Below are positions 2,800 through 56,809 of a DNA stretch of 64,000 nucleotides, piece after piece. Source of the stretch: Eukaryota sp. GEM-RC1 (taxonomy: Eukaryota); the NCBI GenBank assembly GCA_040285855.1, contig JAUFOQ010000002.1, forward strand, positions 2,852,001 to 2,916,000. The letters are read 5' to 3'. Under the pieces are notes generated by a model. The model saw nothing but the letters and a program-made list of their open reading frames with translations, ran no database searches and was not told the DNA's origin. Position numbers and translations under genes: made by a program. How positions within the stretch are numbered: the stretch's first letter is position 1; every line of letters begins with the position of its first letter.

Positions 2800-2875
2800 A
2801 TTCAATAATGCTACAGATTCACTGTAGTAAATACTATGACTATGACAAATAACTGGGTCTAACTCCTAGACCCCG
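2800..2875 (-). ncRNA. Candidate Fanzor omegaRNA scaffold (3' part), overlapping the end of the ORF
   Basis: Hairpin gggtcta-5nt-tagaccc (2855-2873) in the last codons and ctacag-5nt-ctgtag (2811-2827) after the stop, just inside the putative element end. This is where TnpB/Fanzor omegaRNAs lie. Confidence 0.5.
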
Positions 2876-4935
2876 CTCCAAATGATGCTCCACAATGGTC
2901 TTGATGTTGATACATGCTAACTTGTTACGATTCCAAACCTTGGCACTACCATGACATTCTTCTCTACATTCTTGGGACTTGCATCTCAACAAAGCGTGAC
3001 ACTTTACCAGAGGTTTCTTCTCTCTTTCCATGGTTTTGGATTACTGATTTCTTTGAACACTTTAACGGGCTTCCAACAAGTAGGACACTTTGAAGAAGTG
3101 TAACTCTCATCTACGAGAACAAGGTTGTAACCATTTCTCTTAAAGAAGTTTCTCCACATCACACCTCTACTTGATCGGAGGTGTTTTAGGTTATGCCTCT
3201 TATTACCATTGTCACCAAACATCAATACACAGTCATTTTTATTCCATCCTTTTGCAGTCATATTTTTCAACAACTTATTTTCTGTTTTTTGAATATGGAC
3301 GTATCTTTGCATTTTTGAATGCGCCATATCATCAAACAGTAGTAATTAAATGTTGATTCAATAACTGTAAGTTTGGAACTCACATAGTCATAGAAGGTTT
3401 CATAAAGAGTGGACTTTGAATTTTCTTTTGACAACTGTTTTTCCATCTTGGAGAATGAATTCTTTTTTCTTTTCTCTTCTAAACTTTTGATGAACTCTGG
3501 ACAATCTCGACCATTCTGTCTCTGTCAATCTTAGCCACTCGTATTCTTTGTTTCTCATTTCACGAGCAGAATTTTCAGGCTTTCTTATTTTTTCTGAGCA
3601 GAAGTAGAGTAAATCCTTCTTGCCAGGATCAATGTAAACTTTTGTTTTCAATGAAAACTCTTCAACATCATAGTCTTGAACATATTCTTCTTTACTGGAG
3701 AACTTTACACTGTCTGGTTTAAAGGACATTCCCACACAGTCCTCTCTGGTAAGTTCAACACAGGCAGAGAAACCATCAGTTTTAATGGTATTGTTAAACT
3801 TATAACCTTTCTTTATAAATGGACGATTAAAGTTGAAAAAGTAAGACCAGAATTGATTTTGTTCAGCAGGAGACATTCTTTGAATTTCATCTTTTGAATT
3901 CCACTCAGACATTTTCTTCTTGACATTCACTTGTTTTGTTGACAAAGTGGAACGTAATATTCCCCAAAGACCTTGTGTGTCTATTTCAAAGAAACCTGGT
4001 GTGACGTGACGAACAATAGGAATTACATTGTAAGCACTTGCTCCTTCACTTTCAAGATAGTTATTTATTTGAATGGCAGATTTAATAAAGGATTGAGGAT
4101 GTTCACGAACTGATTTTAGTAGAGATTTAACGACTTTCTTTTATAAACACCATTAGCATTTTGAACATCAATTGATGGTGGGAAGAGAACATCAATAAAA
4201 TATTTATCTCTAAACAATCCTTCAACATAGTCGTTAGTTGCCCATAGAAGTTTAATTTTACCTGCAATGTTCAAACTTCTATTACTGTCGTCTTGAAGAA
4301 TTTCTGTATTACATCTTTGAATAAATTGTTTTATTTCTGCACGGGTTTTTGGAATGTCATTTCTGTTACCTTCAAGAAAGACATTTTTAACTTGTCTAAG
4401 TCTCCAACGAAAAACAGACTGTTCTTTTTTTTGACATTGTTTCTTCTTGATCACTCTTTTGAAAATAAACATTAATAAATTTGTCAATGTATTGAGCATA
4501 TCGCATTTTAATGTTTGTGTCCAAATTCGATTTAATAGTTTCACCAACCATTGCCATAAGCCGTGAGGAATGAGCAGCTGGAAAGAGTGGAATTCCTCCA
4601 TTGTTGAGCATTACTTGTTTGTATTCTTCTAAAACAAAGTTTTTCAAGTGTTCATTAAATGCAGGAGCTCGTCCTTGATTACATAATTCAATCTCATTAT
4701 GTTCAGCAGAGATGTTTCTTAACAGAGTTTGAATATGCTCTACTTCTTTCCTTGTAATTAAAGGTAATTTTTTACCATTCTTATCCATGTGTAATAAAAA
4801 CAGCTTCAAACAATAGGAAGTGTGCATTCTAAGTTTGTGAACCAATTGAGCATAATAATCGAGTAATAACGTTAATCCAAAATGTTTAACAATAGACTTT
4901 AGTCCAATTTTATGTGTTACAAAAGTTGGACGAAT
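2840..4935 (-). CDS. Fanzor1 (TnpB-like RNA-guided nuclease) domain
   Basis: HKIGLKSIVK N-terminus, FFEIDT, FWSYFFN, IKTDGFSACV, RuvC-I YIDPGKKDLL, VLMFGDNG, VDESYTSSKCPTC, HALLRCKSQEC, WNRNKLACINI, RPSYLS end. Confidence 0.9.
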
Positions 4936-7900
4936 GATTTTATTTGATTGAAACAATAAAAACAACTTCAATGCTAGTACACTATCTTTGAAGCAATAGT
5001 TCACAACTTCTTGAGGTTTTTCAACAACACAATCAATAGGCAATAAGTGGTGAAATTCGTCATGAAGACGTCCTTTAGATTCGTTTAATAAAAACCAACT
5101 TAATGATCTTAAAGACTTTGAACATTTTGAAACAATAAATTGCTTAGCATAGACGTATGAATCACATACAATTCTACCAGCCCATTCAGAACAAACTTTC
5201 TGCCATAGAGATGATAAATGAGCTTTAGTTGTTTCATCTAGCATTGGTTCTGGAAAGTCGACTCCAAGTGTAACAATCCTGTTGCCTAAAACAACATTAT
5301 CGAAGTCAGTTATGTTAAATCCAGTTAAAACTGACGCATTTTTATCATTCAAATAGTTGACAAAAACTCTAGTAACTGTTTTTCGTTTTCAAAAAATCGA
5401 AGGTTTCTAGAATCAGGTGGCAGTTCAACATCAGATTCATGAGTCAACTCTAAAGTTGCAACAAAATTGTCTTGAAGGTAAAATTGATCTTTTATAAAAT
5501 GACCAAACACTCCAGAAATCATAAAAACTTGTTGGTTTTGAATCCACACTTCTTTTCTGCATCACTTTTCATTTTGAGAGATTCATTCTCGTTCTTTCTT
5601 TGATCATCCAACTCCTTTGTAAGTGTTTCTGCAGGGATTTGATCAATTTCTCTAGTTTCAATATCAAAAGACAATATAGAACAATGATTAGAGTTATTTG
5701 GTAATTGAGAATGTTTGAGAAACTCAATCATTTGTTTTTTAGGAGGTTTCAAACTCTTTGTCGCATTTGACACTCCACTTGCTTTTGGTTTGGTGGTTTT
5801 CCTTTTGGCAACTGTTGTTTTTCTATTTCCTGTTGCTGTTGTTGGTTCAGTGGTGTCAGATGATTCAATTGCTTCTGTTGCTTCTGTTGCTTCTGTTGTA
5901 TCAGGTTTTTCACAAGCAGCAACATTTATTTTTGGAGTTGGTAAATTTATTTCTGGAAGATCTGTTAACTCTGGACGACTAAAGTTATGATAACTTTCTT
6001 GAAATAATTCTTCAGCTTCTTCCAGCGCTTGTTCAATCATTTTTAACTTCAAAAGACGCTTCTTTTCCGATTAGACAAATTTCCAGGTAAACTTTTGAGA
6101 AAGTTTTGATAAGTGAGCTTTGATACCGTTTCCTTGTAACTACTATCATCTACCATTGTTTCAGGAGTTGAACTTTCAGATTGACACTGTACAGGTTGAT
6201 TAACAGGTGATTCAATCTCATCAGAATAAAACTCATTTAAAATACCTTGAGCATGAGTACATACATATTGTCGGTATTCATCAGGGTGATCTTCATCAGG
6301 GTGAGTAGTAACGATTTGAGACAATATTTGTTTTCTCATTTCTAAGGCATTACAAACAACACAATTAGAGACTTTAGACAGAATTTCGAAAAGATTTGTT
6401 GATGTTGATTCACACTCGACAAATTTATTCATATAAATTAGAATAAATGGACCACAGTCATTAAGAGTTTGGACTTGTTGAACTGGTACTCTAGCTATAT
6501 AGCTGAAATTTGCCATATCAAACAGGAATTGCTGTAATTGTGAAATGACTTTGTCAATACGTGATAAAGTGCTAGAAAACTGAGAATGTTGATCTTCTGT
6601 ACACATTGAGTCAATAGAGAATTATTGTTTGTTTTCAATATCACAGATTAACAGTGACCAGTGAGTGGCTGTTGTACCAAAGAGACCGTCATGTATTGGA
6701 ATAAACAAGAAACGTTTCTTACACTCTTTAGTGTGTCTTTTACTGGACTTTTCCATTGATAATTGAACTTCTCTAAATTGTTCAAACATTATGTTATATT
6801 GTGAAAGATTAATAGCATCTTGAATGTTGGCTACTTCAAAGAACTCGCATAGATTACTCTTTTCAGCAATGTACTGACCAACAAAAGTCAATGACAGAAT
6901 CATGAAGCAGCACATTGGGTTTCAGAGTGTCAATTTGATCAGATCTTAGTAAAAGTGGTCTAGGACGAGATTGTGTTAGAATTCCACGATGTTGATGTTG
7001 TAAGATTTGATATTTTTGAGAAAATTTCTTCTTTTTTGGAGGATATTTTCTAGATTGACGAGTTTTTCTTGTACGATTTGAGTCTATAAGTTGATTGGGC
7101 ATAGTCAATGGCACTTGTCGAGTTTCATCAGGAGATGAAACTACTGTTGGATGTTCGGCTATTTCAGAAGTACCAGCAGATCTATTCATTTGTTGTTGCA
7201 AAAATGTAGAATGAACTATGGCACTGTGTTCTTGAACATGTGCTTGAATGTTGTTTGAAAAGCACTCATGTACAATACTTACAGCAAGTATAGCAAAAGG
7301 AATAGGATGCGTGGTTGCTATCAGATTTAGAACTTGTTTTCTCATTTCAAAAGCATCATAATCAACATAACCTTGGACTTGAGACATAATTTCCTGGAAA
7401 TTGTCAGATAATGATGCCAAATGAACAAATCTTTGCATATACATTAAGATATATGGTCCACAGTCGTTGGGAGTTTGATGTTTAATAACTGGAAGCTTTC
7501 CTAAATTTGAGAAATTTCCAATATCACGCAAATATACCTGTAAAGTACTTACAACTTGATCATTTTGAGTTGAAACGTCAAATGAAAGTTGAATTGAACT
7601 GTCAGTGTACATTGGATCAAGTGAAGAAAATGATGTACTATCAATGTCACAAACAAGTAGAGTCCAATGAGTTGCTGTACCACCAAAGACACCATCGTTT
7701 ATTGGAATAAATAAAAACCTTTTCCCAGTCTCTCGCATTGAATTCTGAACATTTAGAAATTCAAGAGCTAATGTGTCAAAATCGCCATAACTCACTGCAG
7801 CATGAAGATTCCCGATAAGGAAAAACTGGCATAACTCACTATTCTCGGTGATGTACTCACCATAAAAGTCAACAACAGAATGATCGAGCCATACGGAGGG

Positions 7901-8092
7901 CTTCAATGTGGTAATTCCTTCCTCAGTGACAAAAGGACCAGGGTTTGACTCTATGTCTCCATCCGTGGTTAAATCATGAACAAACTGTGATGACGGTTGG
8001 TTCAAATGACTATTGAGAAATGACGAGTGATAGTGCGAGTAACTTAATCCTGTTACTATCACCCGAAACACTTTGCAGTGTTTGGAAAGCAT
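2840..8092 (-). CDS. Polyprotein: 2A leader, Ulp1, Ulp1, linker, PolB-type 3'-5' exonuclease, Fanzor1 (about 10 frameshifts)
   Basis: Ten abutting or overlapping ORFs from 6863-8182 down to 2840-3031 join by small frameshifts, mostly 1 nt, e.g. T5 at ~5365 and A8 at ~4428. The breaks fall inside domains. First in-frame ATG at 8092. Confidence 0.75.
4950..5690 (-). CDS. DEDDy 3'-5' exonuclease domain of family-B DNA polymerase type (no polymerase domain)
   Basis: ExoI ILSFDIETR, FENEKQLLEF, ExoII LTGFNITDFD, VCDSY, SLRSLSWFLLNESK, ExoIII NYCFKDSVLALKLF. ExoII/III share ORF 4396-5352 with the Fanzor N-terminus. Confidence 0.85.
6300..6950 (-). CDS. Ulp1/SENP-like C48 cysteine protease domain, copy 2
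   Basis: TLKPNVLLHDSVIDF, FLFIPIHD, THWSLL, SIDSM, QQVQTLNDCGPFI. Catalytic H, D and C plus oxyanion Q are present. Two frameshifts. Confidence 0.85.
7310..7930 (-). CDS. Ulp1/SENP-like C48 cysteine protease domain, copy 1
   Basis: TLKPSVWLDHSVVDFY, FLFIPIND, THWTLL, SLDPM, HQTPNDCGPYI. Confidence 0.9.
7934..7975 (-). other. 2A/StopGo ribosome-skipping peptide DLTTDGDIESNPG/P
   Basis: Exact match to D(V/I)ExNPGP, directly before the first Ulp1 domain. Confidence 0.9.
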
Positions 8093-8167
8093 CAAATAAG
8101 AAGAAAAAGGTGATAGTGCGAGTAACTTAATCCTGTTACTATCACCCGAAACACTTTGCAGTGTTTG
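8027..8167 (-). repeat. Two identical 58-bp copies (8027-8084, 8110-8167) of a two-hairpin structured motif
   Basis: Sense strand aaacact-gcaa-agtgttt cgg gtgatagt-AACAGGATTAAGTTACTCGC-actatcac, present twice with an 83-bp period. Confidence 0.9.
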
Positions 8168-8209
8168 CGACAAAGGGAACAAAAAAGATACAGGTCAAAA
8201 AGATTTCAA

Positions 8210-8219
8210 CTATTTATAG
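8210..8219 (-). promoter_or_regulatory. TATA-like box upstream of the polyprotein leader
   Basis: ctataaatag on the minus strand, ~40 nt upstream of the first structured motif. Confidence 0.3.
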
Positions 8220-8661
8220 CTGATGTTGACACTGACAACTTGACATTATGGCATCTTCATCATATGTTGTACTGGTCTTCTCTTCATGAACACACCTCCC
8301 TATCATCTTAATAGGTGAAGATCCTTTCAATCGTGATCTTTTACTGTGTTTATTTAGCTTCTTCAAAACAGAAGTTCATTTTGACTACAGCTAACTCCAC
8401 CATCATATGCACTCTGTCAGAACTCTTCTCATCTTCACACTTTTGAATGAAAGATTGGGACTGTTTTGATTCAAATGCAAGAAATTGGACACATCATGGT
8501 CATACTCACTCCAACACGTCCCAAATATTAAAGATTTGAACTGAGTTATAGTTTAAAATATTTACACTTACTTTTGTTGAGCACCGCAATGACATTCATA
8601 TAAATAAAACAAAACATAAGAACTACTGCTACATTTTCAACACATAGATGTTGATTTTGTT

Positions 8662-8783
8662 CAACATTTGTAATGACAATATTTGTAGATACAACATTTG
8701 TAATGACAATATTTGTAGATACAATATTTGTAGATATAATATTTGTAATGACAACATTTGTAGATACAATATTTGTAATGACA
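8662..8783. repeat. 15-bp minisatellite, 8 copies
   Basis: Units caa(c/t)atttgta(atga/gata). Confidence 0.9.
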
Positions 8784-8914
8784 CTCACTAAAATCTTGAT
8801 CTAGGGTACAGGTCATTGAAAAAAACGATGAAAGTGCAAAAACAAACAAATAATACAAAGATTAAATCCATTTATAAAACAAAAAATTAAAACACAACAA
8901 CAACTACTGATCTG

Positions 8915-11900
8915 CTACATTTTCCCCAAATTTGGGGAACACTTCCCCAAACCTTCAGCATTGACATCAACAATCTCATCTGATACTTGAGAATCATGTG
9001 CAGTCGGCCGACGACGTTGAATTTGGTCTAATTCAGATTCGTAATCGTTAGTAGAAGCTGAATAGTAATCCACTAAACTCTCCCAAAGCAGATTTGTTCG
9101 TAAAAGCTTTTCATGTCCACATATAAAATTACTAAACCTGCTTCTGGTCAGCATAATATTTATTCTTCGCTCATCTGTCAAAAAACCTAGACTTTGAGTA
9201 ATGTTGCCTTCTTGATAGGATCTCACTGTACTGATAAATACAAAATCTACTTCTTTTCCCTGAAATGCGTCAGTTGTTGATATCTGTACATTGTCTAAAG
9301 GTGGTTCAATAGAGTCAAACAATTGTCTGAGTTGATCAACCTGTGCCCTGTAAGGTGTCAACACTGCCACACTAAATGAACGCTTGAGAACTTTTTCCAA
9401 TGCATCTTTGTGATCCTTCAAAAAATCACAAACTCCTTTAATAACAGCAATGGCTTCGTGTTCGTTGAATAAACTACCTGCCAATTTTTCTGAATAATCT
9501 TGAATTGACCCCCATGTGTTTACAAAATGTCTTTTGGCACATGTCAATTGTTCACCAGTGATTGGTTCCACAGTGTCAATTTGATCACTGTAAAACATTG
9601 AATTAGAAAATGCCCACAATTCTGAGAATTGACGATATTGTGGATTCAGTAGTGTGTAGCGTTCTCTATCAAAGTGATGTGCCAAATCAGATTGATCAAT
9701 CAATCTTTCCATCAAAGACTTGGACAACCCTGGGTTTTGATTGAAGACTACAGGGGGTAATTGTTTATGATCTCCAACAATTACAATGGTTGTAAATTCA
9801 TTACAAATTCATAACGCAGCCACTAGTTCAGGCTCAGTTGACTGGCAAGCCTCATCAATAATTAAAAGTTGTGGTTTAAAAATACCTTTATTCCTGTAAC
9901 TGCTCGCTCCTGCTAATGTTGTGAAGAGAACATCATATTCTTTAGAAATCCACGAAAGATCATCCTTTTCTTCTTCCCTCATCTTGAGCAGCAGGTGTAG
10001 TGGTATGTGGCTGACCATGTTTAATATTCCTTCTTGGTTGTTTAAGTGGAGGAAGTCTGACAGCTTGTTGATCTAATAAATCTTGAGCATCTTGTTCATC
10101 TTGTTTTTCAGCTTCTTCTTTTGCTTGCTTTTGTTCTAACTTTGTACTTAACAAGAACGGTTGAACTTCTGGTAAAGGATGTAATTGAGAACTTATTCGC
10201 ATCAATTTTTGTTCATCAACTGAATGTTCATCAACTAGCTTGGCTAATATTACGTCAACTGCATTATTCGATGGAGCAGCTACCCAAACCTTGCATTTGT
10301 TAGACAAAAAGACATAATCAATTTGACAATGGTCGTTGTTTTCCCTGTACCAGGTGCTCCATGAATCACATATAGACCATGGGAAGTTACATGCAATTTT
10401 CTAATTTCTTCAATTGCCTTTTTTTTGACAGTCATTTAAATTTTGACAGAGTTCTGAATCAGTTTTAAAACTTAAACAACTTGGTAGTTGTGGTGCTTTA
10501 GGAATAATTCCTAACTGGTATTGAACACGTAGAGGAATTTCTAAATCCACCATGGCAGAAATTTGGCGCAAAAAGTGACTACCAGAACCGATTTTGACTG
10601 CAAACAGTACAGTAAGTGGGCAAATAGGGTCTTGGGTAATTACAGACATCTTTGACCATTGAGTTGTCTTTGATAGTCGATGACATTTACTGACTATTGC
10701 AAAATGAACATTGAGACTTGCAGCCATCACGTCAGCCAGAGATCCAATCATAAAAATATCTGATTCACCAACATGCTCACATTGTCGAACATTAGACAAA
10801 AATTCTTGAAAAGCCTGATGAACATTGACTTCACACATTGGTAGATCCTTGGAAATACCTCTATTCAAAAAAGTTTTACAACCATTAATATTTGGCCTAC
10901 TGGTGGGATTCTTCGTTCTATCAGCTAATAATATTCGAATATTAGTCACAAATCCCACTTCTTGTTCGACTGATTGTTGTAAAGAATAAACCATCAAGAG
11001 ATCTTGTTTGTTGAAATTTTTGAATCCGAGACAGCATGAAGATGTTACTTCGTCCAGAATTCAATCAATCCAGTCAGCCGAATATTTGGTTTGTAAATTC
11101 AATTTTGCTCTGAAATTAATTTTCATTTCATCTGGCATCTTGAATCTAGAATCATCTTGAGCTATTTCTTTGTCTTCAGCTGATTCTGTATCTTCGATTG
11201 CTTGTTTTTTGGAACTCCACCACATGAACATTAGTGGTACAAAAAGACTACTGACCGGAGTTTTTCTAGGTCGTTGGATCTGGGACGTTTGATTTGTCGT
11301 CTGAGGTTTTTTTCTGAAAAATTTCTTACCAAAAAGAAACGATGAAGTATTAGGCTCGACTTTATCTTTCAAATTCAATAAAAATAGTAGTTCTTTTTGA
11401 GTTGACGAAGAAAATTGTTGCTCTTCATCTTCAGACCAAAATGGAACAACCTGTCTTTGAATGAACCTATCTGATTTGGGAAGAGGATCAATACCAGTGG
11501 CGAGAACAGTGTAGCAATTACTCAGAGACAGCTGGTCGTCTGGTGGGGATCTTTCTAATTCAGGATCTTCAGGATCGTGTTCAGTCATTGTCTTGATAGT
11601 TTGTTTTGCAAACTGTACAGCTTCTTCATGGGTGTTACATCTGGCTGTGGTAGTTTGTAAAATCCCAAGCCATTGAGACTGGAAGTGTAACGGTTCATCA
11701 TACTTGATCCAATATTATGGTTGTTCCTTGTCGATGGATACAAATGCATGGCATCCCGCTTTCTGGTTGGGTCGGATTCTTCTTTTGTCTTGTTCCGTGG
11801 ACCTGGATCAGATTCAATGTCTCCACAAAGCGTAAGATCAATCTTGAAAAGAACATACAGCGAGTAACTCAATCCTGTTTGTATGCTCTTAATAGCCTTA

Positions 11901-11956
11901 TGGCTATTGGGGGATAGAAAGGTGAAAGGAGGCTCTTCTAACCTATAGAGTTCCAT
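8915..11956 (-). CDS. 2A-led Upf1/DNA2/NAM7-like SF1 helicase (frameshifted)
   Basis: Walker A IHGAPGTGKTTT (~10335-10370), VAAPSNNAVD, IIDEACQ, VGDHKQLPP (~9755-9780), SLMERL, LNPQYR, LTPYRAQV, TTDAFQGKEVD, FLTDERRINIMLTRSR. About 6 frameshifts. Confidence 0.88.
11798..11839 (-). other. 2A-like peptide DLTLCGDIESDPG/P (N to D variant)
   Basis: Matches 2A except DPGP replaces NPGP (gat vs aat). Lies at the N-terminus of the helicase ORF. Confidence 0.75.
11851..11908 (-). promoter_or_regulatory. Third, diverged copy of the two-hairpin motif, before the helicase 2A
   Basis: Sense strand aatagcc-ataa-ggctatt aa gagcataca-AACAGGATTGAGTTACTCGC-tgtatgttc. Same geometry as the other copies with different, still paired, stems. 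Confidence 0.75.
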
Positions 11957-12005: not shown

Positions 12006-12603
12006 ATGTCATTCGAGTCCTTAGAATCTGAATACGACAAACTTATAGAACTTCTTTCTAATGTGAGCGATCCATCAGGAAATCTTCCGGATTCATCTTC
12101 TCCTGAATTCCTTCAACTTCTAAACCAAATCAATAAAGTCACTTGGCCTCTGCAGCAGGACGCTGTTAAAGCAATTCAATTAGGCTTGGAATACCAAGAA
12201 CTTGGAGAAGTAGCTCGCAATGTACACTCTCAGTTATCATCACTCAGAATTCGAGCCAATGTTCTGCAACGTGAACATGACCGTCTAGCTAGTGAGATTT
12301 CTAATCCCCTTGATGACCATCGTGATCTCATCCCACCAGAACTTCACCCCATTGACAACAAAGCCGAGCTGTTTGCAATCATGGATTATTATGATGTAAA
12401 AAAAATGTGATGCAAAATTGAAGTTGCTGGACATGCCGCCAGAACTCGATCCGCTTGATAATCCAGATGCGGTGGCTGCTTGGTTGAGAACACAAATTTT
12501 CCTACGGAGGCAAAAACAGCAGATGAAACTGCCAGAGCCCCAAAGAAAATTGGGGAAAAAGGCCAGCCAAGTAAAGAAAAAACGTATGAATTATAAACTT
12601 TAA
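12006..12603 (+). CDS. Small helical protein of unknown function within the element
   Basis: ORFs 12006-12410 and 12418-12603 join by deleting one A in the A8 run at ~12400. Internal repeat PPELHPIDN / PPELDPLDN and a basic C-terminus. Confidence 0.6.
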
Positions 12604-42999: not shown

Positions 43000-43584
43000 C
43001 TAAACCACCAACCAAATTATATAAAATATTGTCCTCAACTTGTTAAAATTTCTTGAAAACTCGCAAGTAACCTCAGGCGGAAGACGTTTCAGCCAGTGAT
43101 TTATCTTAACAGCAAAACAAACCGGCAACACAGTAAAAGACACTTGCTTGCCAACATCCAAATCCAAAATTTGTTTCAATTGACAGAAAATGGAATCATT
43201 TTTGTCTTTCAACTTTTTCTTTGTTTCATTCAAATTACCAATGGAATTTGCTAGAAAGTTAATACTGTTTTCTGAGCAATTGAAAAGGAATCGGGTCATG
43301 ACATGCAAATGAATCTCTTTTGAGACCATCATTGACACACCTCTTAATTTTAATAGATGAACCAACTGACTCTGACAGACAAACAACACGAACAAAACCA
43401 CGGGTAAAAAAAGATCAAAAGTACCAACCAAAGATGTAACATCAGCGTAAGAATTAATTCTTATTTCTGGAAATTCAACAGAAAATGATCTCAAAATCTT
43501 CCATAAGGGCAAACAGAATAGAAAGGGACCCAAAGTTTCACCTTGTTTAACTCCACGTGAAGAAATAACATTGTAATCGACCAC
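43000..43584 (-). pseudogene. Decayed non-LTR reverse transcriptase fragment
   Basis: SSRGVKQGETLGPFLFCL, SYADVT (degraded YADD), KINHWLKRLPP. Confidence 0.8.
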
Positions 43585-44914
43585 AAGAGGGGAATGAAAT
43601 TTGTTAATATTGATGATAATCTTAATTTGAATGATTAAATAAGAGGAGTTTCAGCAGAACCATGTCTATCTTAAACATGTTCTCAATCTAAATTGGAAAA
43701 CAGCATTTGTGAGCGTATCAACGTTTATGTAGCATTCACAGAGACAATCTAACGAACTACCTACTAATAATTCTGAAAAAGTAGTTACCACCAAACAACT
43801 TGGCTAAAATACAAACAACATCTACCTACATTGACTTATATAGAAAAAGCAAATTTACTCTTCCAGTAGAACCTGTTAAACTTCCTACCAAATTTCGAAA
43901 TTATTTGAGCAACTGCTTACTATAAAGCGATATTTGTTTAAAAAAGTGAAAATGATCGAAAGATATTTTCTTTGTTAATTCTTTAATTCGTTAAATCAAT
44001 CGCACAGAAACTTATGAGGACCTCTTATAGTTCTGTGTCTGTAGAGGATTTACTCTGGAACACTCTTATTAGTTTTTAGTTGTTGTGCCACGTGTTGAAG
44101 TTGGTTTCACTTACTGTCAGATTCCTTGATTGGTTTTAAATGAATTAAGAGACTAACAGAAATACATAACTGCTACCATGTCGGTCTCATTTAATTCCAT
44201 TGCTTTAAGATACTAAGTCACTTGTTCCACTGAATAAATATGTATTGTTCAATTGTTGGATGTTAGCCATTACTTTCGCTATTCTTAAATCAGTGTGGAT
44301 AAACGTTCGGTCCATATCGATTTATTTTAACCACATCAATGAAAAGTTTATGTTACTAGTAAATAAAGACATTTTCATAAATGTGTTCAAATAATATCAT
44401 TTCCAAAGTGGTGATGTAAAAAAACAGAATACCGTACATTTTTCACAACAACCTTGAAAAGTATTTACGACTACTACTTTTGTACATCAATGTTCCAAAG
44501 TAAAGGAATATTCATTCGTCAAAGCCAGTATCATGACAACAAAATCAGTTCTCTGTTTCTTGTGGTCGTTTCATATAACCAACGACTCTTTGAGTTTACT
44601 TAATATGTTTGTTTCAAGAAGTCGTTCGTAACATTGCGATGTCTATTTAAGAATATACTTAAAAGCAAAGACGTTCACGTGTGATGCTTAGGCTCCGTAT
44701 CTACCAGTTAAATTGTGCAGAGGCTACACTCAGCAAATTGTGCACTGATGAATTGAAAGGGTGTGTTTGCCGCGATTAGTACTGTACTTGGGTATCACAT
44801 GGTGAAAAAAAACTACTTTTCGGAATTAGGTAGTTCGTTTGATAATTTGTTTTAATAGTGTTTATTTATTTGTTGATTTCTTATTATGTGTTTTTCTCCG
44901 CAAATAAATCCGTT

Positions 44915-45290
44915 TTCTTAAAGGAATAGCAACACCTTCATGCAAAACAGTGTCATCCACACGACCAATAACAACACAATTGCTCAAATTGATTTTCAAA
45001 CCAATTTGACCAGAAAGATCAACGAATCGTGCAAAACTTGGTTTCAAAGTATGCATTTTGCCAACCAAAGAAGTGTCATTAGCATACGAATTAATCATTA
45101 TACCTGGAAACTCACTATGGAAAACTCGTAACACTTTCTGCAAAGGCAAACAAAAAGAAAAAGGGCCAAGAGGATCACCTTACTTCACACCACGAGACGA
45201 TTTCAAACAAAATTCGTTAAAAATCAAATCAGTAGGACTTCCATAAAATGCTTCAAAATATGGAACAAGTTCAGGAAAATGCTCCATCCC
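44915..45290 (-). pseudogene. Decayed non-LTR reverse transcriptase fragment
   Basis: SSRGVK*GDPLGPFSFCL, SYANDT, IGLKINLSNC. Confidence 0.8.
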
Positions 45291-47306: not shown

Positions 47307-48299
47307 CTGGCGAAACTTTATGATTACCTCACTTTTACTCTGAATGTCCGTTGGTCAACTTTTTAAGTTTAGTCGATCAATTCATATATATTACGGACTC
47401 AGGAATTTCATGTGTGGAAATTCTGTTAGGATTTTCTTTGTGCAATTGTTTTTTTGGACATTGATTTACCGAAGCATTACAATGTATAATGTTTGTTGTG
47501 GACATCAAAAATCTTTAGGTTGCTAGTCCTACTCTTCTCTAGTTGGAAGCATTATATTTGGAATCAAGTTAGTATGGAACTTTACACGTCATCAACTCTT
47601 TTCGTTGTAATTGTTTATTTAGCATTCTATGTTATATGTATCTGTTTTCTAGTCCCAAGTATAGTAAACCGTGAATACAGTGTATCCGATATAGAGAGTG
47701 TATAATTAATGTTTTCACTGTCGACATTCTTTTCAACATTGTGGTTCTGAACCGTTCATTGATGCCTTTCAGTGTTAAACAAATGATGATAACTACATGC
47801 ATGTAGTTGTGTATACTGAACTTTGTTAAAAAACTGTTTCAGCTGTAGGTTTAAAAGCTTAATTAAGTATACTTTTGTTTCGAGGTCAGTCTCTTTAGGA
47901 GAATCAATAGTATTATGCAGTTATGTATATTGTAATCAAAACTTAATTCGGTACCTAATAAGGAAACCTTCTTACAAAACTGTGAAATTGCAAAAACAAA
48001 CATCTAATACTAAGATTAAATCCAAACGACTTCATCACCACCCGGTAAAAGATTACGCTTTTCAACATTAACCTTCACACCAAACTTGTACAATTTCTCA
48101 ATCAATTGAGAGAAATAGAAAGGCATATTCCGATATATGGAAAATACTATACGGGTTTTCCATCCAGCCATTCTAAACTTACGCTTCTTGTCTTTACACA
48201 GTTCTTCGAAATCCTTGACAAATTGATCACCAGCAAGACTAATCGATCTAAAAAGAGAAACAGCAAAAGGTTGAAATACAAATTTGGAATATGAGTTTC

Positions 48300-48957
48300 G
48301 ATTTTATTCTTCTACTTGAGAGTCATACTTGGAGTGTTTCAGCTTGTCAGCTGTTAACGGATTAAAAGAAGAATCAAATATCCTACTAACACAAGATTTG
48401 TTACAAACATCTACTGTAGTAAAATCCATCAATGAATGACTAGATTTAAGCCACTGAGTATGGAGATCCCCTCTTTTTGATCTGAAAATTCATTTTCATA
48501 AAGGTGATTCAAAACTGGTTCAACTTTAGAGTGAAAACCATGTGCTTTAAACATGGAATAACAAGAATCACGTACACCATCATGAATTACTGCACGTAAA
48601 TGAATAAATTTTTTTCATGTATTTTTTATATTATAAATGTAATAGATCAAACAAATAGAATTTGATATCATTAAAACAACACCCGTCGCTATCAAACCTT
48701 ACAACAGCTTTGTCCTCATAAAACGAACTCACTGCTAATAAAGCTTTGGAGATGATTAGGGGAACTGTTTTAAAAACAGTAAAAACGATCCGATTCAACC
48801 ATAACATATGATCAAAACGTTTGTTCATCCTATTTTTTACGATTTTTCCGAAATCGTTTAAAAAATTCAATGGACTTTTTCCTAAACGTCCGTAAATTGA
48901 AACGGCAAAAGGGCATAATTCGTACTCAACATGTTTTACATGTTTTAAAGCCATCAA
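48300..48957 (-). mobile_element. Two RLE-type non-LTR retrotransposon 3' fragments
   Basis: RAVIHDGVRD..KVEP..GDL..MDFTTVD (48300-48620) and PFAVSIYGRLG..WLNRIVF (48631-48957). Confidence 0.7.
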
Positions 48958-49309: not shown

Positions 49310-49627
49310 TGTAAATATGTTTCTTCTTTTAATCCGTTAACAGCTGCTGAAAAGCTCAAACACTCCAAGTGTGACTCTCAAGTGGAAGAATTAAATAGAA
49401 ACTCATATTCCAAATTTGTGTTTCAACTTTTTGCTGTTTCTCTTTTTGGATCTATTATTCCTGCTGGTGATCAATTTTTTAAGGATTTCGAAGAATTGTG
49501 TAAAGAAAAGAAGCGTAAGTTTAGAATGGCTGAATGGAAAAACCGTATAGTGTTTTCCATATATCAGAATATGCCTTTCTATTTCTCTAGATTAATTGAG
49601 AAATTGTACAAATTTGGTGCCGAATAA
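49310..49627 (+). mobile_element. RLE-type non-LTR retrotransposon 3' fragment
   Basis: AAEKLKHSK..FQLFAVSLFG..WKNRIVF. Confidence 0.65.
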
Positions 49628-52617: not shown

Positions 52618-53740
52618 CAGGCTTCAGTGAAGCACTTTTTCACTTTTGTGAAGCCGCTTCACTAAAGTGATAAAGTGCTAAAGTGACTTTACTTTGCTTT
52701 TTTTTACTTTACATTAAAGTTTTGCAAAAGTAAAGTAACAGACCCTCAAACTTGTTTATTTTGCTTTCTGAGCACTGTAAATAACTCTCTTACACCAGTA
52801 TAACATGTTCTATCATAGGTACTCAACAAAAAACGATATAAAGTGGTTTCTTGCAGACACTTTTTCAAACAAGATCCATTATTCAAACGTCAGGTCACTT
52901 CAATACATCAATCAGTATCTGATAGTTCGAGATTGTCCCCTTTAAACACAGAAACCAGTTCATTTCCGATGCACCATTCGCTATGTCTCTTCAGTTTTGG
53001 ATAACTCTCGATTCATTACCTACTGGTATCCGTTGTTCGGAGTTGAGTGAAGTCATGTGTACATGGGATCGGAAATTGAATAAGAAAACTTAAGAGAGAA
53101 AGTTGTGAAAAGCGGATTGAGAACAGGTCAAACTTTTAGTGTTGTACGAAACGTTTCGGCGTTTCCAACGTTTCAGAAACGTTAATGACTCACAGGAAAC
53201 GCATCCGAACCGTGAATGAACGTTTCCAAAACTTGATGACTCCCGTAGATTTGTTGAAAAGTATGTTCTGTTTAATGTACTGTAATACTCTCTATATGAA
53301 TGTAACGAATAAAATTGGATGCACAGTAGCAAACCACTAAAACGAAAACACTTACAGGCATAACTGTAGTTTGTGATCCAATTTTCTCTCTAAATTTCAT
53401 ACCATTGAGAAATACAATCCATAACAACATGTATGACACCTGCACATACAACAAAGAACTGATAAAAATCAATTATACCAGTTAAACGGAATTGTTTCGA
53501 AGAGAGAATGTTGGTGGAGAAAAATTGAGATGTAGAACCATAAAACGACGTTTCGGAAACGGAAACGCGATTCCGAAACGTAAACGGGTTTCCACAAGAA
53601 TTTTCACACGTTTCGTGCAACACTACAAACTTTATTGACTTTAAAGCAACTTTTTAGCTGAAGTAAAGTAAAGCTTAAAGTAAAGAAGATTACTTTACTT
53701 TACTTCAATTTGGAATTTTGGACTACTTAAGTGAAGCCTG
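52618..53740. mobile_element. hAT-like non-autonomous element hosting a nested MITE
   Basis: Inverted ends caggcttca / tgaagcctg and aaagt/acttt subterminal repeats. No TSD seen. Confidence 0.55.
53137..53625. mobile_element. hAT-type MITE, copy 1
   Basis: TIR tagtgttg(t/c)acgaaacgt with a perfect 8-bp TSD caaacttt (53129-36, 53626-33). Confidence 0.9.
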
Positions 53741-54331
53741 GGGCCTATTGCAGGGATCGAAAAAACATATTGCAATATATTTCTAGCATAAAAAATGTAC
53801 AATAAATATGTTGGAAAATGTGATCATTGCAATAAGGATATTGGAAACTGACATGATTGCAGTAAGTAATTGCAATATATGGCAATATTTTGGGTAAAAT
53901 TTGGTGGTTCGTGAAAATGTAAGAAATTGAGACGTCCTGCTGAAATTTACTGACTGAAAATCAACCACTAGTTCGTCAGAGCTTTTAGTCGGTTACCCTT
54001 TCAGATACATGCATAAGAACATTAATTAAACTTCTTAACGTACTGTAAATCTTGACACCGCTTCTGATCATAATGTCCGCTAACTAGTAAAAGATCCCGT
54101 TATTCGATGTTTACCTTCACACCAAACTTTTAAAGTTACTATCCTAATCGACAGCAATAGAAAAACAAAGCTGGAACTAGAAGTTGTTTTCATTAATACA
54201 GTGTACTGCTACTAGTAGTGCTGGAAGTGGATGAAATATTCTAGTTGCATTCCGTACCCATACCAATGGCAATCCTCTTGCAACAGAATATAGTCTCATT
54301 GATCCATATACACTTGGTGAGACATCTCTGC

Positions 54332-55623
54332 ATGTCTTCAATTGAACCAACTAGCTGTGATCCTCATAGACCTCTTTGTTGTTTGAAACGCGATCTCCCT
54401 TCATTTGTTAAAAACGTTGGATATGTCAGTCAACGTTTTTATGAATGTTCTTTCACAGCCATTGATGTGTTCTTCTCAACAAACACTATTCATGTTGTCC
54501 CTGAACAGACTTCCCTGCTTTTTTCTATTGCTTCGTTCTTTAAAGCAAAGATTCGTTCTGTTTTCGTGTACTTGGAAGATTCTGTTGAACTGAAGAACGT
54601 ACTTAAGTATTCTCAAATCATTTCAGGTATAAAAGTGAGGATGCGAAACAAGACAGATTGGAACGTTCTTAGTGTATCTTCGCCTTTCCCTTTCCCTCGT
54701 CTTAAGCGACTTGATGTGATTGTCGATGATGCATCTAGTTTCTTTGGATTAACTGAAGCATTGAAAAGTAATTCTGTAATTACTGAAATTAATCTTGACC
54801 ACATCTCTATTAGTGCTGAAAATGCTGTGGCATTTGCTGATGTTCTTAAACGCAATTCAGCTTTGAGGCGGGTGAAACTATCATATAACTTTGTAGACTC
54901 TGATAGTGTGATTTCTTTTGCCAATGCGTTAAGAGTGAATTCAACTATTACCATGATTGATCTAGGATACAACTCTATTAGTCCTTCATGTACTACTATG
55001 TTGTCAAAAGCATTGAAAGTGAATTCCACAATTTCTGAGATTTATCTAGAGTATAACTCTATTGGCGATGAAGGCGCAAAATCATTATCAGAAGCGTTGA
55101 AAGTGAATTCTTCAATTGTTGTTCTTAATCTACGTGACAACTCTATTGGAACTGAAGGTGCAATTGCTTTAGGAGACGCTTTGAAAGTCAATTCCTCGCT
55201 TAGAGATATTTATCTGGGGTTCAACCGCATCGGTGATAGAGGCGTGATGGCGTTATCAGAAGCGTTCCAAGTAAATTGCTCAATTACTGACATCAATCTT
55301 TGGGATAATTCTATTACTGCTGAAGGTGCCACTGCATTGGGAGAAGCTTTGAAAGTAAATTCTACTCTTAATCGGATTCATCTTGGGCTCAACTGTGTTG
55401 CTAATGAAGGCGCTATCGCTTTTGCTGAAGCGTTAAAGTGAATTCTTCAATCACAGTGATTGAACTCGGATGTAACTCCATAGGTGATGAAGGCGCTATC
55501 GCTTTTGCTGAAGCTTTGACATGGAATGTTTCGAATGCTGAGGTTTATCTTTGGGAAAATTCTGTTAACTTAGAAACCATACCACGCATTGAGAGTCTGT
55601 CTAACAATCAAATCAAGTGTTAG
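54332..55623 (+). CDS. RI-like leucine-rich repeat protein
   Basis: 28-aa repeats ALKVNSxIxxIxLxxNSIGDEGA. Frameshift at ~55435. Confidence 0.85.
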
Positions 55624-56335: not shown

Positions 56336-56801
56336 TAGTGTTACACGAAACGTTTCAGAAACGTTTATGACTTTAAGGAAATGCATCAGAAACGCCAATA
56401 AATGTTTCCAAAACTTGATGATTAATTTCTTGAAAAGCCTGTTCCGTTTATTGTACGTTATTGGTATTTTTATGAATGTTCCCAAGAAATTGGCCTACAC
56501 AGTAGCAAACCGCTAAAACGAAAACACTTTCTGACATAACTGTATTTTGTGATCCAATTTTCTCTCTTAATTTCATACCATAGTAAAATACAGACCTTAA
56601 CAACGTGTATAACACCTACACATACAACAAAGAACTGATAAAAATATATTATACCAGTCAACCGGAATTTTTTCCAAGGAAGAATGTTGGCGGAGAAAAA
56701 TTGAGATGCATAACAATAAAATGACGTTTCGAAAAAGGAAACGCAATTCCGAAACGTAAACGCGTTTCCACAAGAATTTTCACACGTTTCGTGCAACACT
56801 A
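56336..56801. mobile_element. hAT-type MITE, copy 2 (same family as 53137-53625)
   Basis: Same TIRs and internal sequence; degenerate TSD gaagaaac / gaaacaac. Confidence 0.85.
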
Positions 56802-56809
56802 GAAACAAC

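Follow-up and report, generated by a model that had tools for sequence, protein, structure and literature searches.

A 57-nt motif of two hairpins, found three times in the 64,000-nt stretch of DNA that was analysed (the window), is, as judged from sequence, a real structured RNA element on the mRNA strand, and it precedes both 2A-led large genes of what appears from its gene content to be a decayed Fanzor-carrying mobile element. The sequence-only reading had proposed a cis-acting structured element on this strand rather than a peptide motif, and the pairing, the folding by strand and the reading-frame data bear this out. The explanation favoured here, with confidence somewhat below even, is that the motif is a covarying mRNA-leader module, which likely starts translation and is probably HDV-derived, and that the 2A peptide is predicted to shed the variable leader peptide.

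The last unit before the 2A of the Ulp1/C48 protease gene consists of hairpin 1 (8066..8083; 7 bp and a 4-nt loop) and stem-loop 2 (8025..8064; 10 bp and a 20-nt loop at 8035-8054), all features here and below being on the − strand. A duplicate lies further upstream in the Ulp1 leader (hairpin 1 at 8149..8166, stem-loop 2 at 8108..8147 with its loop at 8118-8137), and the third unit lies ahead of the helicase-gene 2A (hairpin 1 at 11891..11908, stem-loop 2 at 11850..11889 with its loop at 11860-11879). Copies had previously been placed at 8027-8083, 8110-8166 and 11851-11908 and were located there, on the − strand. The two Ulp1 units are an exact 58-nt duplication that ends where stem 2 ends, with a unit spacing of 83 nt, which is not a multiple of three. 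Each unit follows a pyrimidine tract: 8084..8107 for the last Ulp1 unit, which contains an in-frame AUG at 8092 (21 of the 25 nt upstream of hairpin 1 are pyrimidines, placing it in the top 0.6% of − strand 25-mers), 8167..8191 for the upstream Ulp1 unit (20/25 nt, top 1.3%) and 11909..11933 for the helicase unit (22/25 nt, top 0.2%).

In a gap-free alignment of the three copies, two of which are distinct sequences, all 17 pairs were present in every copy, and 10 were kept by double changes; with two independent DNA sequences this covariation is a single comparison, within a structure derived from the same sequences. Controls in which the register of the stems was slid were 31-49% paired. When the units are compared, 13 of 34 stem bases are identical, as are 19 of the 20 loop bases, which confirms the earlier description of stems that differ yet stay paired around a near-invariant loop. 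The 11-nt spacing that had been reported holds if it is measured between hairpin 1 and the loop, whereas stem 2, at 10 bp, sits 1 nt from hairpin 1. Similarly, what had been described as a single mismatch is indeed a G-U on the mRNA strand, but there are three such pairs, one per copy; these are the only non-Watson-Crick pairs, and the − strand has no mismatches. The coding strand outfolds the opposite strand in all three trimmed copies, and the folding z-scores on the − strand were −3.9, −4.0 and −4.2 (equally good shuffles, 0/200).

The loop pattern, with up to three mismatches allowed, gave three matches in the window against none in 100 shuffles, and a sequence-free two-hairpin descriptor found only these three sites in the window, with one match in 1 of 30 shuffled windows. 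A model of the unit found no fourth copy in the window, as the runner-up scored 15.7 bits compared to 87-93 for the real copies. An exact search for the loop in viral contigs gave no matches and a looser gapped pattern gave five viral loci; exact matches numbered two in metagenome contigs and, for the 18-nt core, 17 in prokaryote genomes. All of these outside matches were rejected as true copies, as none has both stems and they scored 17-25 bits. The hairpins downstream of the Fanzor stop had a folding z-score of only −1.8.

The 2A-like peptide of the Ulp1 gene (7934..7975) has the canonical core DIESNPGP, and its skip-site Pro codon lies 89 nt past stem 2. That of the helicase gene (11798..11839) has its Pro codon 50 nt past stem 2 and the non-canonical core DIESDPGP, so that the claimed position of the motif before both 2A peptides holds, but one of these departs from the canonical NPGP. 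Both helicase-type cores that were examined depart from the consensus, each at its own position. In-frame AUGs are present at 8092 and 11956, each 156 nt upstream of the skip site, and because they precede both 2A sites, translation may start by ordinary scanning.

The sequence-only reading had itself raised the case that conservation extends to the peptide TGLSYS alone, with incidental stems. The single base change in the loop leaves the peptide of the 2A frame unaltered, the last units of both genes read TGLSYS, and the loop third positions are over-conserved only mildly (5/6, P about 0.03), all of which this explanation would accommodate. It is nevertheless refuted by the double changes in the stems and by changes of frame, since the upstream Ulp1 unit is translated in a different frame of the same ORF and frame-shifted units also occur in the related proteins P0002 and P0123, and it is scarcely credible. 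The peptide flanking the loop is almost wholly different between the two genes, though the stems covary, and TGLSY occurs in only 4 of 37 2A-led relatives and is therefore not the conserved feature.

These relatives are 37 filtered 2A-led predicted proteins, with leaders judged from protein sequence, and in-frame arrays are over-represented among them because only predicted proteins were visible. NPGP is kept in 35/37, and the D(V/I)ExNPGP core is also found in the Ulp1 gene of the window. Tandem units of 23-42 aa occur in 21 of the 27 relatives with a leader of at least 70 aa; P0117 carries the helicase-type unit in six 33-aa copies. The same leader can stand before different proteases (P0195/P0196 versus P0131/P0208, and P0122 versus P0001), and related arrays have a constant point beyond which their last copy no longer follows the unit. 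Related genes use other leader units, and the window unit is tandemly repeated. A two-hairpin descriptor ending CUCGC was fitted by 4 of 14 related units (shuffles equalled the stem length in 1, 6, 4 and 21 of 200), and because so few units fit it, many of the related arrays may be different RNAs. An unconstrained back-translation test was powerless, with 23-59 of 60 shuffles passing. Protein-led locus searches of viral contigs returned no relatives for any of four single-protein queries. A CRISPR-like array was rejected, as the spacers are identical inside several arrays, and so was a splice acceptor, as there is no AG at a common position.

The cassette that carries the units comprises the Ulp1/C48 gene with two protease domains (6049..7936), which is interrupted near 6885 by a frameshift and near 6622 by a stop, a fragmented stretch that encodes a PolB-type exonuclease and then Fanzor1 (TnpB-like) (2840..6040), and a gene for an Upf1-like SF1 helicase, split into several pieces, plus an N-terminal region (8915..11800). 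The only Pfam domains in the cassette are Ulp1, AAA_11/12, PolB exonuclease and TnpB zinc ribbon, the last (PF07282) with an E value of 9e-5, under its cut-off. Fanzor1 was assigned from matches to two solved Fanzor1 chains (E 3.2e-9 and 7.3e-9), and the copy is broken. The N-terminal pieces of the helicase gave no usable match in the ESM Atlas. Similarity between the C-terminus of P0196 and the N-terminus of the window Fanzor was not significant (E 0.62) and does not support a Fanzor fusion in the relatives.

Rolling-circle origins show a variable stem capped by a fixed loop, which the unit resembles, and its hairpins also form under DNA parameters. They might accordingly act in single-stranded DNA, as the origin, terminus or promoter of a rolling-circle (Helitron2-like) or virus-like element, and Fanzor1 is known in Helitron2 elements, as set out in part of PMC3627910. 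We consider this improbable: the units lie inside the element and go with 2A rather than with its ends, no RT, APE, Rep/HUH or transposase was found in the cassette, and in the search for terminal inverted repeats the best flank match was 12 nt, inside the null range of 10-15. The cassette resembles the DNA transposons that carry Fanzor1 (Helitron2, Mariner, MuDr, Sola, IS4-like; PMC3627910) in that Fanzor1 stands last among the genes of a multi-copy element; it differs in that no transposase and no above-chance terminal repeats were found and, from Helitron2 in particular, in that its helicase is Upf1-like and neither RepHel/Rep nor asymmetric terminal inverted repeats were found.

The last Ulp1 unit can alternatively be drawn, under a relaxed descriptor only, as a candidate P4-less HDV-like fold (8008..8064). 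In this fold P1 would pair 8064-8058 with 8031-8025, P2 8049-8045 with 8012-8008, P3 8044-8042 with 8034-8032 and P1.1 8040-8039 with 8024-8023, L3 would be 8041-8035, and the predicted cut falls between 8065 and 8064. The relaxed descriptor, which was loosened after this sequence had been seen, matched the window at 8064 only, with 0/100 shuffles and 0/20,000 of a fixed-loop null; the strict descriptor had no match in the window. Earlier the motif had been said to match no known ribozyme consensus, and this stands for hammerhead, twister and Rfam, but not fully for the 8027 copy, which fits the relaxed HDV-like fold. P1 comes given with the hairpin because it is part of stem 2; a P1 of 7 bp from G1-Y is present at 8064 and 8147, and the 11851 copy starts A-U in the same register. 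P3 has 3/3 pairs in both Ulp1 copies versus 1/3 in the helicase copy and is not family-wide, and the last seven loop bases of all three copies fit the fixed U, C and G of L3 (positions as given in the relevant part of PMC6326823). By the published descriptions of L3 and of P4-less folds (sections of PMC6326823 and PMC10879173), 8008-8064 resembles P4-less HDV-like/theta ribozymes in its strand order, lack of P4, 7-bp P1 from G1, 3-bp P3 and L3 U/C/G. It differs in having a P1.1 of C-G plus A-U rather than two C-G pairs, an A-U rich P2 of 5 bp preceded by C-U-C-A-A with no J4/2 of the CRRA form, and a P1 whose 3-bp extension competes with this fold and is kept by covariation; the P4-less descriptor in PMC10879173 may permit a junction of this kind. 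The extended hairpin is favoured by about 6.5 kcal/mol (−11.8 versus −5.3 for P1+P3), and the pairing probability of P3 was 0.0 in a model without pseudoknots.

If every copy were a functional HDV-like ribozyme, like the one that heads L1Tc, the long hairpin would be merely a misfolded form. The 8027 copy, with P1, P2, P3, L3 and a two-pair P1.1, fits far beyond the nulls tried, and P0003 and the last P0122 unit keep an identical peptide across the HDV-like stretch. We regard this reading as highly unlikely, however, as two of the three copies fail by sequence: the upstream Ulp1 copy (8110; 8108-8147) has neither a P1.1 C-G pair nor a P2 partner, and the 11851 copy, likewise without C-G in P1.1, fails P3, P1.1 and G1, the first three bases of its 3' stem covarying with the pre-loop bases and not with the P3 strand. 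Upon back-translation the relaxed fold was fitted by 3 of 20 leaders, all from the subfamily of the window, and a loose version by 10 of 25, with shuffles fitting about equally often outside that subfamily; P0117 and P0110 fail even the loose descriptor (which shuffles pass in 8/15 and 7/15).

Catalytic cores typically show a near-invariant loop amid free stems. The resemblance raises a rather unlikely alternative, that the 57-nt unit or a neighbouring pair is a new or strongly rearranged self-cleaving ribozyme, whose cut makes the 5' end and whose arrays arise from copied circularised monomers. The unit looks self-contained, with the duplication stopping at the end of stem 2 and related arrays diverging at a fixed point, and viruses are reported to have tandem ribozymes whose stop-free units come in multiples of three (PMC13725137), which speaks for this alternative. 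However, no known core was found: a scan of the unit against Rfam 15, which had been proposed as a check, matched no family (best E 1.2-6.9, far under the gathering scores, with twister, pistol, hatchet, hairpin, IRES and snoRNA included), and hairpin-ribozyme likeness was rejected for want of an Rfam match. The hammerhead CUGANGA was absent from the motif on either strand, its single match being within the protease coding region, and the twister-sister-like internal loop strands of 5 and 6 nt (residue numbers from PMC11620745) were in neither leader. Successive cuts would also be redundant, self-pairing of the loop was no better than in shuffles (33% of which were as good), nor was loop-loop kissing, and the 83-nt array spacing is not a multiple of three.

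The same combination of a sequence-fixed loop on a sequence-free stem in tandem copies would also suit a protein-binding operator, bound by the element's own Upf1-like helicase, the Fanzor or a host protein, with tandem copies tuning repression or RNP assembly and translation beginning at ordinary AUGs. An RNA helicase within the same cassette and the in-frame AUGs 156 nt before both skip sites are consistent with this. We think it quite unlikely, as it leaves unexplained both why 2A follows the arrays across the family and why one copy has an HDV-like fit, and as the related loops differ, so far as peptides reveal.

Under the favoured translation-start module, the cassette would be transcribed across both genes, and the pyrimidine tract and two stacked hairpins with their constrained loop may attract ribosomes or an initiation factor in a cap-independent way. 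At times the last Ulp1 unit may refold and cut between 8065 and 8064, which would release the downstream mRNA from the helicase transcript. The array-encoded peptide, whatever its content, would be dropped at the 2A, so that the enzymes would start at a fixed Pro irrespective of unit number, sequence and frame. There are precedents in the portions of the literature concerned: an IRES-like action has been suggested for the HDV-like ribozymes of R2 and L1Tc (PMC6765202), cap-independent translation can be induced by self-cleavage (PMC13725137), and non-LTR elements have their 2A some 40-80 aa from the start of ORF2 (PMC3708506).

A close comparison is with L1Tc/ingi, described in parts of PMC6765202 and PMC3708506, in which an HDV-like ribozyme within the first 77 nt is followed by an N-terminal 2A; in both systems a structured RNA with some HDV-like character heads a mobile-element ORF with 2A within about 50 codons. 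This parallel, drawn in the sequence-only reading, is closer than was thought in that one copy fits the relaxed HDV-like fold, but weaker in that the cassette has no RT or APE, its cargo being Ulp1, exonuclease, Fanzor1 and Upf1-like helicase. The window unit is moreover tandem and stands before two genes, and it is the two-hairpin fold that is conserved, whereas one copy only fits HDV. Ribozymes in the 5' UTRs of linear RNA viruses, as surveyed in part of PMC13725137, are also small structured RNAs before an ORF, sometimes tandem, for which cap-independent translation has been proposed or shown. Those are hammerhead, delta or twister ribozymes in RNA genomes (PMC13725137), whereas the window unit is chromosomal, matches no class across its copies and is coupled to 2A. 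Neither a 2A-Ulp1-exonuclease head nor structured leader arrays were found in the literature searched.

More broadly, and unlikely as we hold it to be in full, RT-less Fanzor-carrying eukaryotic elements may express their genes via 2A-coupled, swappable arrays of small RNAs that cleave or load ribosomes. In that case the 57-nt unit would be a new RNA class in mid-descent from an HDV-like ribozyme, with further undescribed RNA motifs in the other leader subfamilies. If inactive, the unit is a structured repeat, not described before, within a decayed element. An initiation or cleavage element of 57 nt would serve in expression vectors, and the relatives, with their many unrelated repeat units ahead of 2A, point to a cheap, well-defined source of new small RNAs. 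If the module starts translation or cuts itself, it would show a route by which a Fanzor nuclease may be expressed from within a longer transcript, and an RT-less element would join trypanosome LINEs and RNA viruses in using the strategy of ribozyme plus 2A.

Three copies of a two-hairpin motif had been claimed by the sequence-only reading at 8027-8083, 8110-8166 and 11851-11908, and all three were found there on the - strand. They align without gaps, each unit comprising a hairpin of 7 bp capped by a 4-nt loop and, after a single base, a 10-bp stem around a 20-nt loop. The stems covary as proposed: all 17 pairs are kept in every copy (standard pairing in all 51 cells, 17 pairs x 3 copies) and 10 of the 17 have changed on both sides, while sliding the partners by 1-3 columns as a control left only 31-49% paired. 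The two distinct sequences share 13/34 stem bases and 19/20 loop bases, which bears out the near-invariant loop. Copies 8027 and 8110 arose as a duplication identical over 58 nt, which leaves only two independent sequences; the structural evidence for the motif is strong but comes from these two. A sequence-free descriptor matched just these three sites in the window, and 30 shuffled windows gave one match.

Folding z-scores were -3.9 to -4.2 on the - strand vs -2.5 to -3.8 on the + strand. Each of the three non-Watson-Crick pairs is a G-U on the - strand, which favours the coding strand; G-U pairs alone leave RNA and single-stranded DNA undistinguished. That the unit acts as a DNA hairpin is considered improbable. 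Conservation at the level of the peptide (TGLSYS), named beforehand as what would undo an RNA reading, is ruled out because the reading frame of the unit varies, both within the window itself and in the related proteins P0002 and P0123. TGLSY is present in just 4/37 single-2A relatives, where NPGP is kept in 35/37, and the peptide explanation retains a negligible probability.

Both 2A-led genes lie in one decayed cassette on the - strand (~12000 to 2840), flanked by host genes of ordinary appearance. The first runs from 2A through a region without assignment to an Upf1-like helicase with AAA_11 and AAA_12 matches, for which human UPF1 is the best match of solved structure (E 1e-21). In the second, 2A is followed by two Ulp1/C48 protease domains, with a PolB-type exonuclease region and then a Fanzor1, similar to a solved Fanzor1 at E 3e-9, further downstream. 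Frameshifts or stops interrupt all cassette genes. A reverse transcriptase, transposase and Rep domain were looked for in the cassette and none was found, nor were terminal repeats exceeding chance. The motif does precede both 2A peptides, stem 2 ending 89 and 50 nt ahead of the skip-site proline codons. Each gene has one in-frame AUG (8092 and 11956, -) exactly 156 nt ahead of that codon, an equal spacing that may be chance since relatives show other lengths. Ahead of every unit lies a tract with 20-22 pyrimidines in 25 nt, a density that ranks in the top 0.2-1.3% for the strand.

Several other features were observed in the window. Several frameshifts interrupt the Fanzor1 copy (2840-5050, -), whose last RuvC motif has R-N in place of the R-D of the family motif in PMC3627910. 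Three successive hairpins after its stop codon (2727-2830, -) could be a putative scaffold of its guide RNA, although the z-score for folding of this 201-nt region is only -1.8. A 15-nt tandem array (8632-8807) separates the helicase gene from the Ulp1 leader, and one 13-mer is found twice, at the stop codon of the helicase gene (8912-8924, -), with short palindromes ahead of it, and right after the array (8626-8638, -). The 49 nt at 8822-8870, after the helicase gene, are 88% identical to 47976-48024, which adjoins another repeat element. Beside the helicase leader is a divergent frameshifted ORF (12006-12590, +), which may belong to the element because a near-identical copy (P0119) exists elsewhere. 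Inverted repeats of 305 bp at 48078-48379 and 49315-49619 (90% identical, ~0.9 kb apart) look like a non-autonomous DNA transposon, and 464-bp direct repeats at 53167-53630 and 56349-56806 (84% identical) flank a leucine-rich-repeat-like ORF (54245-55441). Two related fragments at 43000-43650 and 44862-45179 (-) resemble a non-LTR reverse transcriptase by eye and are not linked to the cassette.

Related copies were compared as protein sequences, not DNA. The Ulp1 search returned nine proteins, eight assigned by NCBI to Eukaryota sp. GEM-RC1, and a profile search gave 77 matches at E <= 0.001, many of them viral-type multi-2A polyproteins or distant proteases. Ten proteins whose source was checked came from GEM-RC1 (7), TZLM3-RCL (2) and TZLM1-RC (1), skoliomonad metamonads with genomes rich in repeats (PMC11316075). 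The 37 single-2A relatives are those in which one 2A only is present and precedes this Ulp1-type protease, plus P0117; the filter dropped some 2A proteins, such as P0141, P0149 and P0167. Repeated units of 23-42 aa occur in 21/27 relatives with a leader of at least 70 aa, three of the 21 being supported by just 2-4 repeated 7-mers, and P0117 has the helicase unit six times. One same leader precedes different proteases, and leaders are therefore exchanged as modules near 2A. In several relatives protease and exonuclease are fused in a single ORF.

Sharing of the fold was assessed by back-translation of protein leaders only. An 8-bp stem 2 with a UCGC-ending loop was compatible with 8/10 leaders vs 1/10 protein bodies, these leaders being close relatives that include the window's own protein. 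Against shuffles 4/14 units fit the motif and 10/14 do not; two of the four come from subfamilies with other peptides (shuffles equal in 4/200 and 21/200), a faint hint that the fold may be present in two more subfamilies. Most other arrays may be different RNAs. Further kinds of tandem unit before 2A, in P0129/P0198, P0131/P0196, P0132, P0135, P0137 and P0009, do not fit by back-translation and are candidates for other RNA motifs.

The motif had been said to match no known ribozyme (hammerhead, HDV, twister). An Rfam scan gave nothing near threshold and the hammerhead core is absent, as is that of twister-sister-like ribozymes; for HDV the claim is not fully right as regards copy 8027. When copy 8027 is extended 17 nt toward 2A, every strand of a P4-less HDV-like fold is in order: P1 of 7 bp from G 8064, P2 of 5 bp, P3 of 3 bp, a 7-nt L3 with U, C and G at their fixed positions, P1.1 with two pairs, and C-A-A ahead of the P2 3' strand. 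A relaxed HDV descriptor, whose rules were eased after this sequence had been seen and were uncalibrated on known ribozymes, matched only this site in the window, both strands being scanned, and matched none of 100 shuffles and 0/20,000 constructs with the loop kept and stem and flanks randomised. Copy 8027 fails published HDV rules at P1.1 and J4/2 (PMC6326823).

That all copies are working HDV ribozymes is very unlikely, since copy 8110 lacks the P1.1 C-G and a P2 partner, and copy 11851 keeps 1/3 P3 pairs and begins with A. In copy 11851 three post-loop bases changed jointly with three pre-loop bases and not with the P3 strand, so selection has maintained the long hairpin rather than P3. 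This hairpin is 6.5 kcal/mol stabler than P1+P3, excluding P2, P1.1 and metal ions. The relaxed fold was compatible with 3/20 back-translated leaders, all of the window's subfamily. These features are read as HDV-like ancestry, probable rather than certain, with one unit perhaps retaining some activity; they are not taken as HDV membership. A candidate new self-cleaving class is unlikely, and a putative protein-binding operator marginally more so.

A translation-start module is tentatively predicted, at somewhat below even chances, and is the simplest joint account of a fold kept on the mRNA strand, a sequence-fixed loop, variable tandem copies, leader peptides unrelated to one another and, directly after them, a canonical 2A. 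Ribosomes would load at or ahead of the array; the leader peptide read from it would need no fixed length or sequence, as 2A would remove it. Ordinary scanning may also serve, given the in-frame AUGs. At this one locus, the HDV-like-capable last unit of the downstream gene would answer the need for release from the upstream transcript. R2 and L1Tc carry HDV-like ribozymes believed to serve in addition as IRES-like elements (PMC6765202), N-terminal 2A occurs in L1Tc and many other non-LTR elements (PMC3708506), and self-cleavage alone can yield cap-independent translation (PMC13725137). As for the suggested parallel with L1Tc, the motif would most likely work like its ribozyme-plus-2A start but does not belong to the L1Tc family.

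No description of this arrangement was found among the papers listed from a literature collection with few subscription papers, and the main text of a survey from 2026 covering 2A-like peptides in eukaryotes mentions neither these organisms nor Ulp1 (PMC13405545). The motif is a real, covarying and undescribed RNA motif within an undescribed family of Fanzor1-carrying elements.
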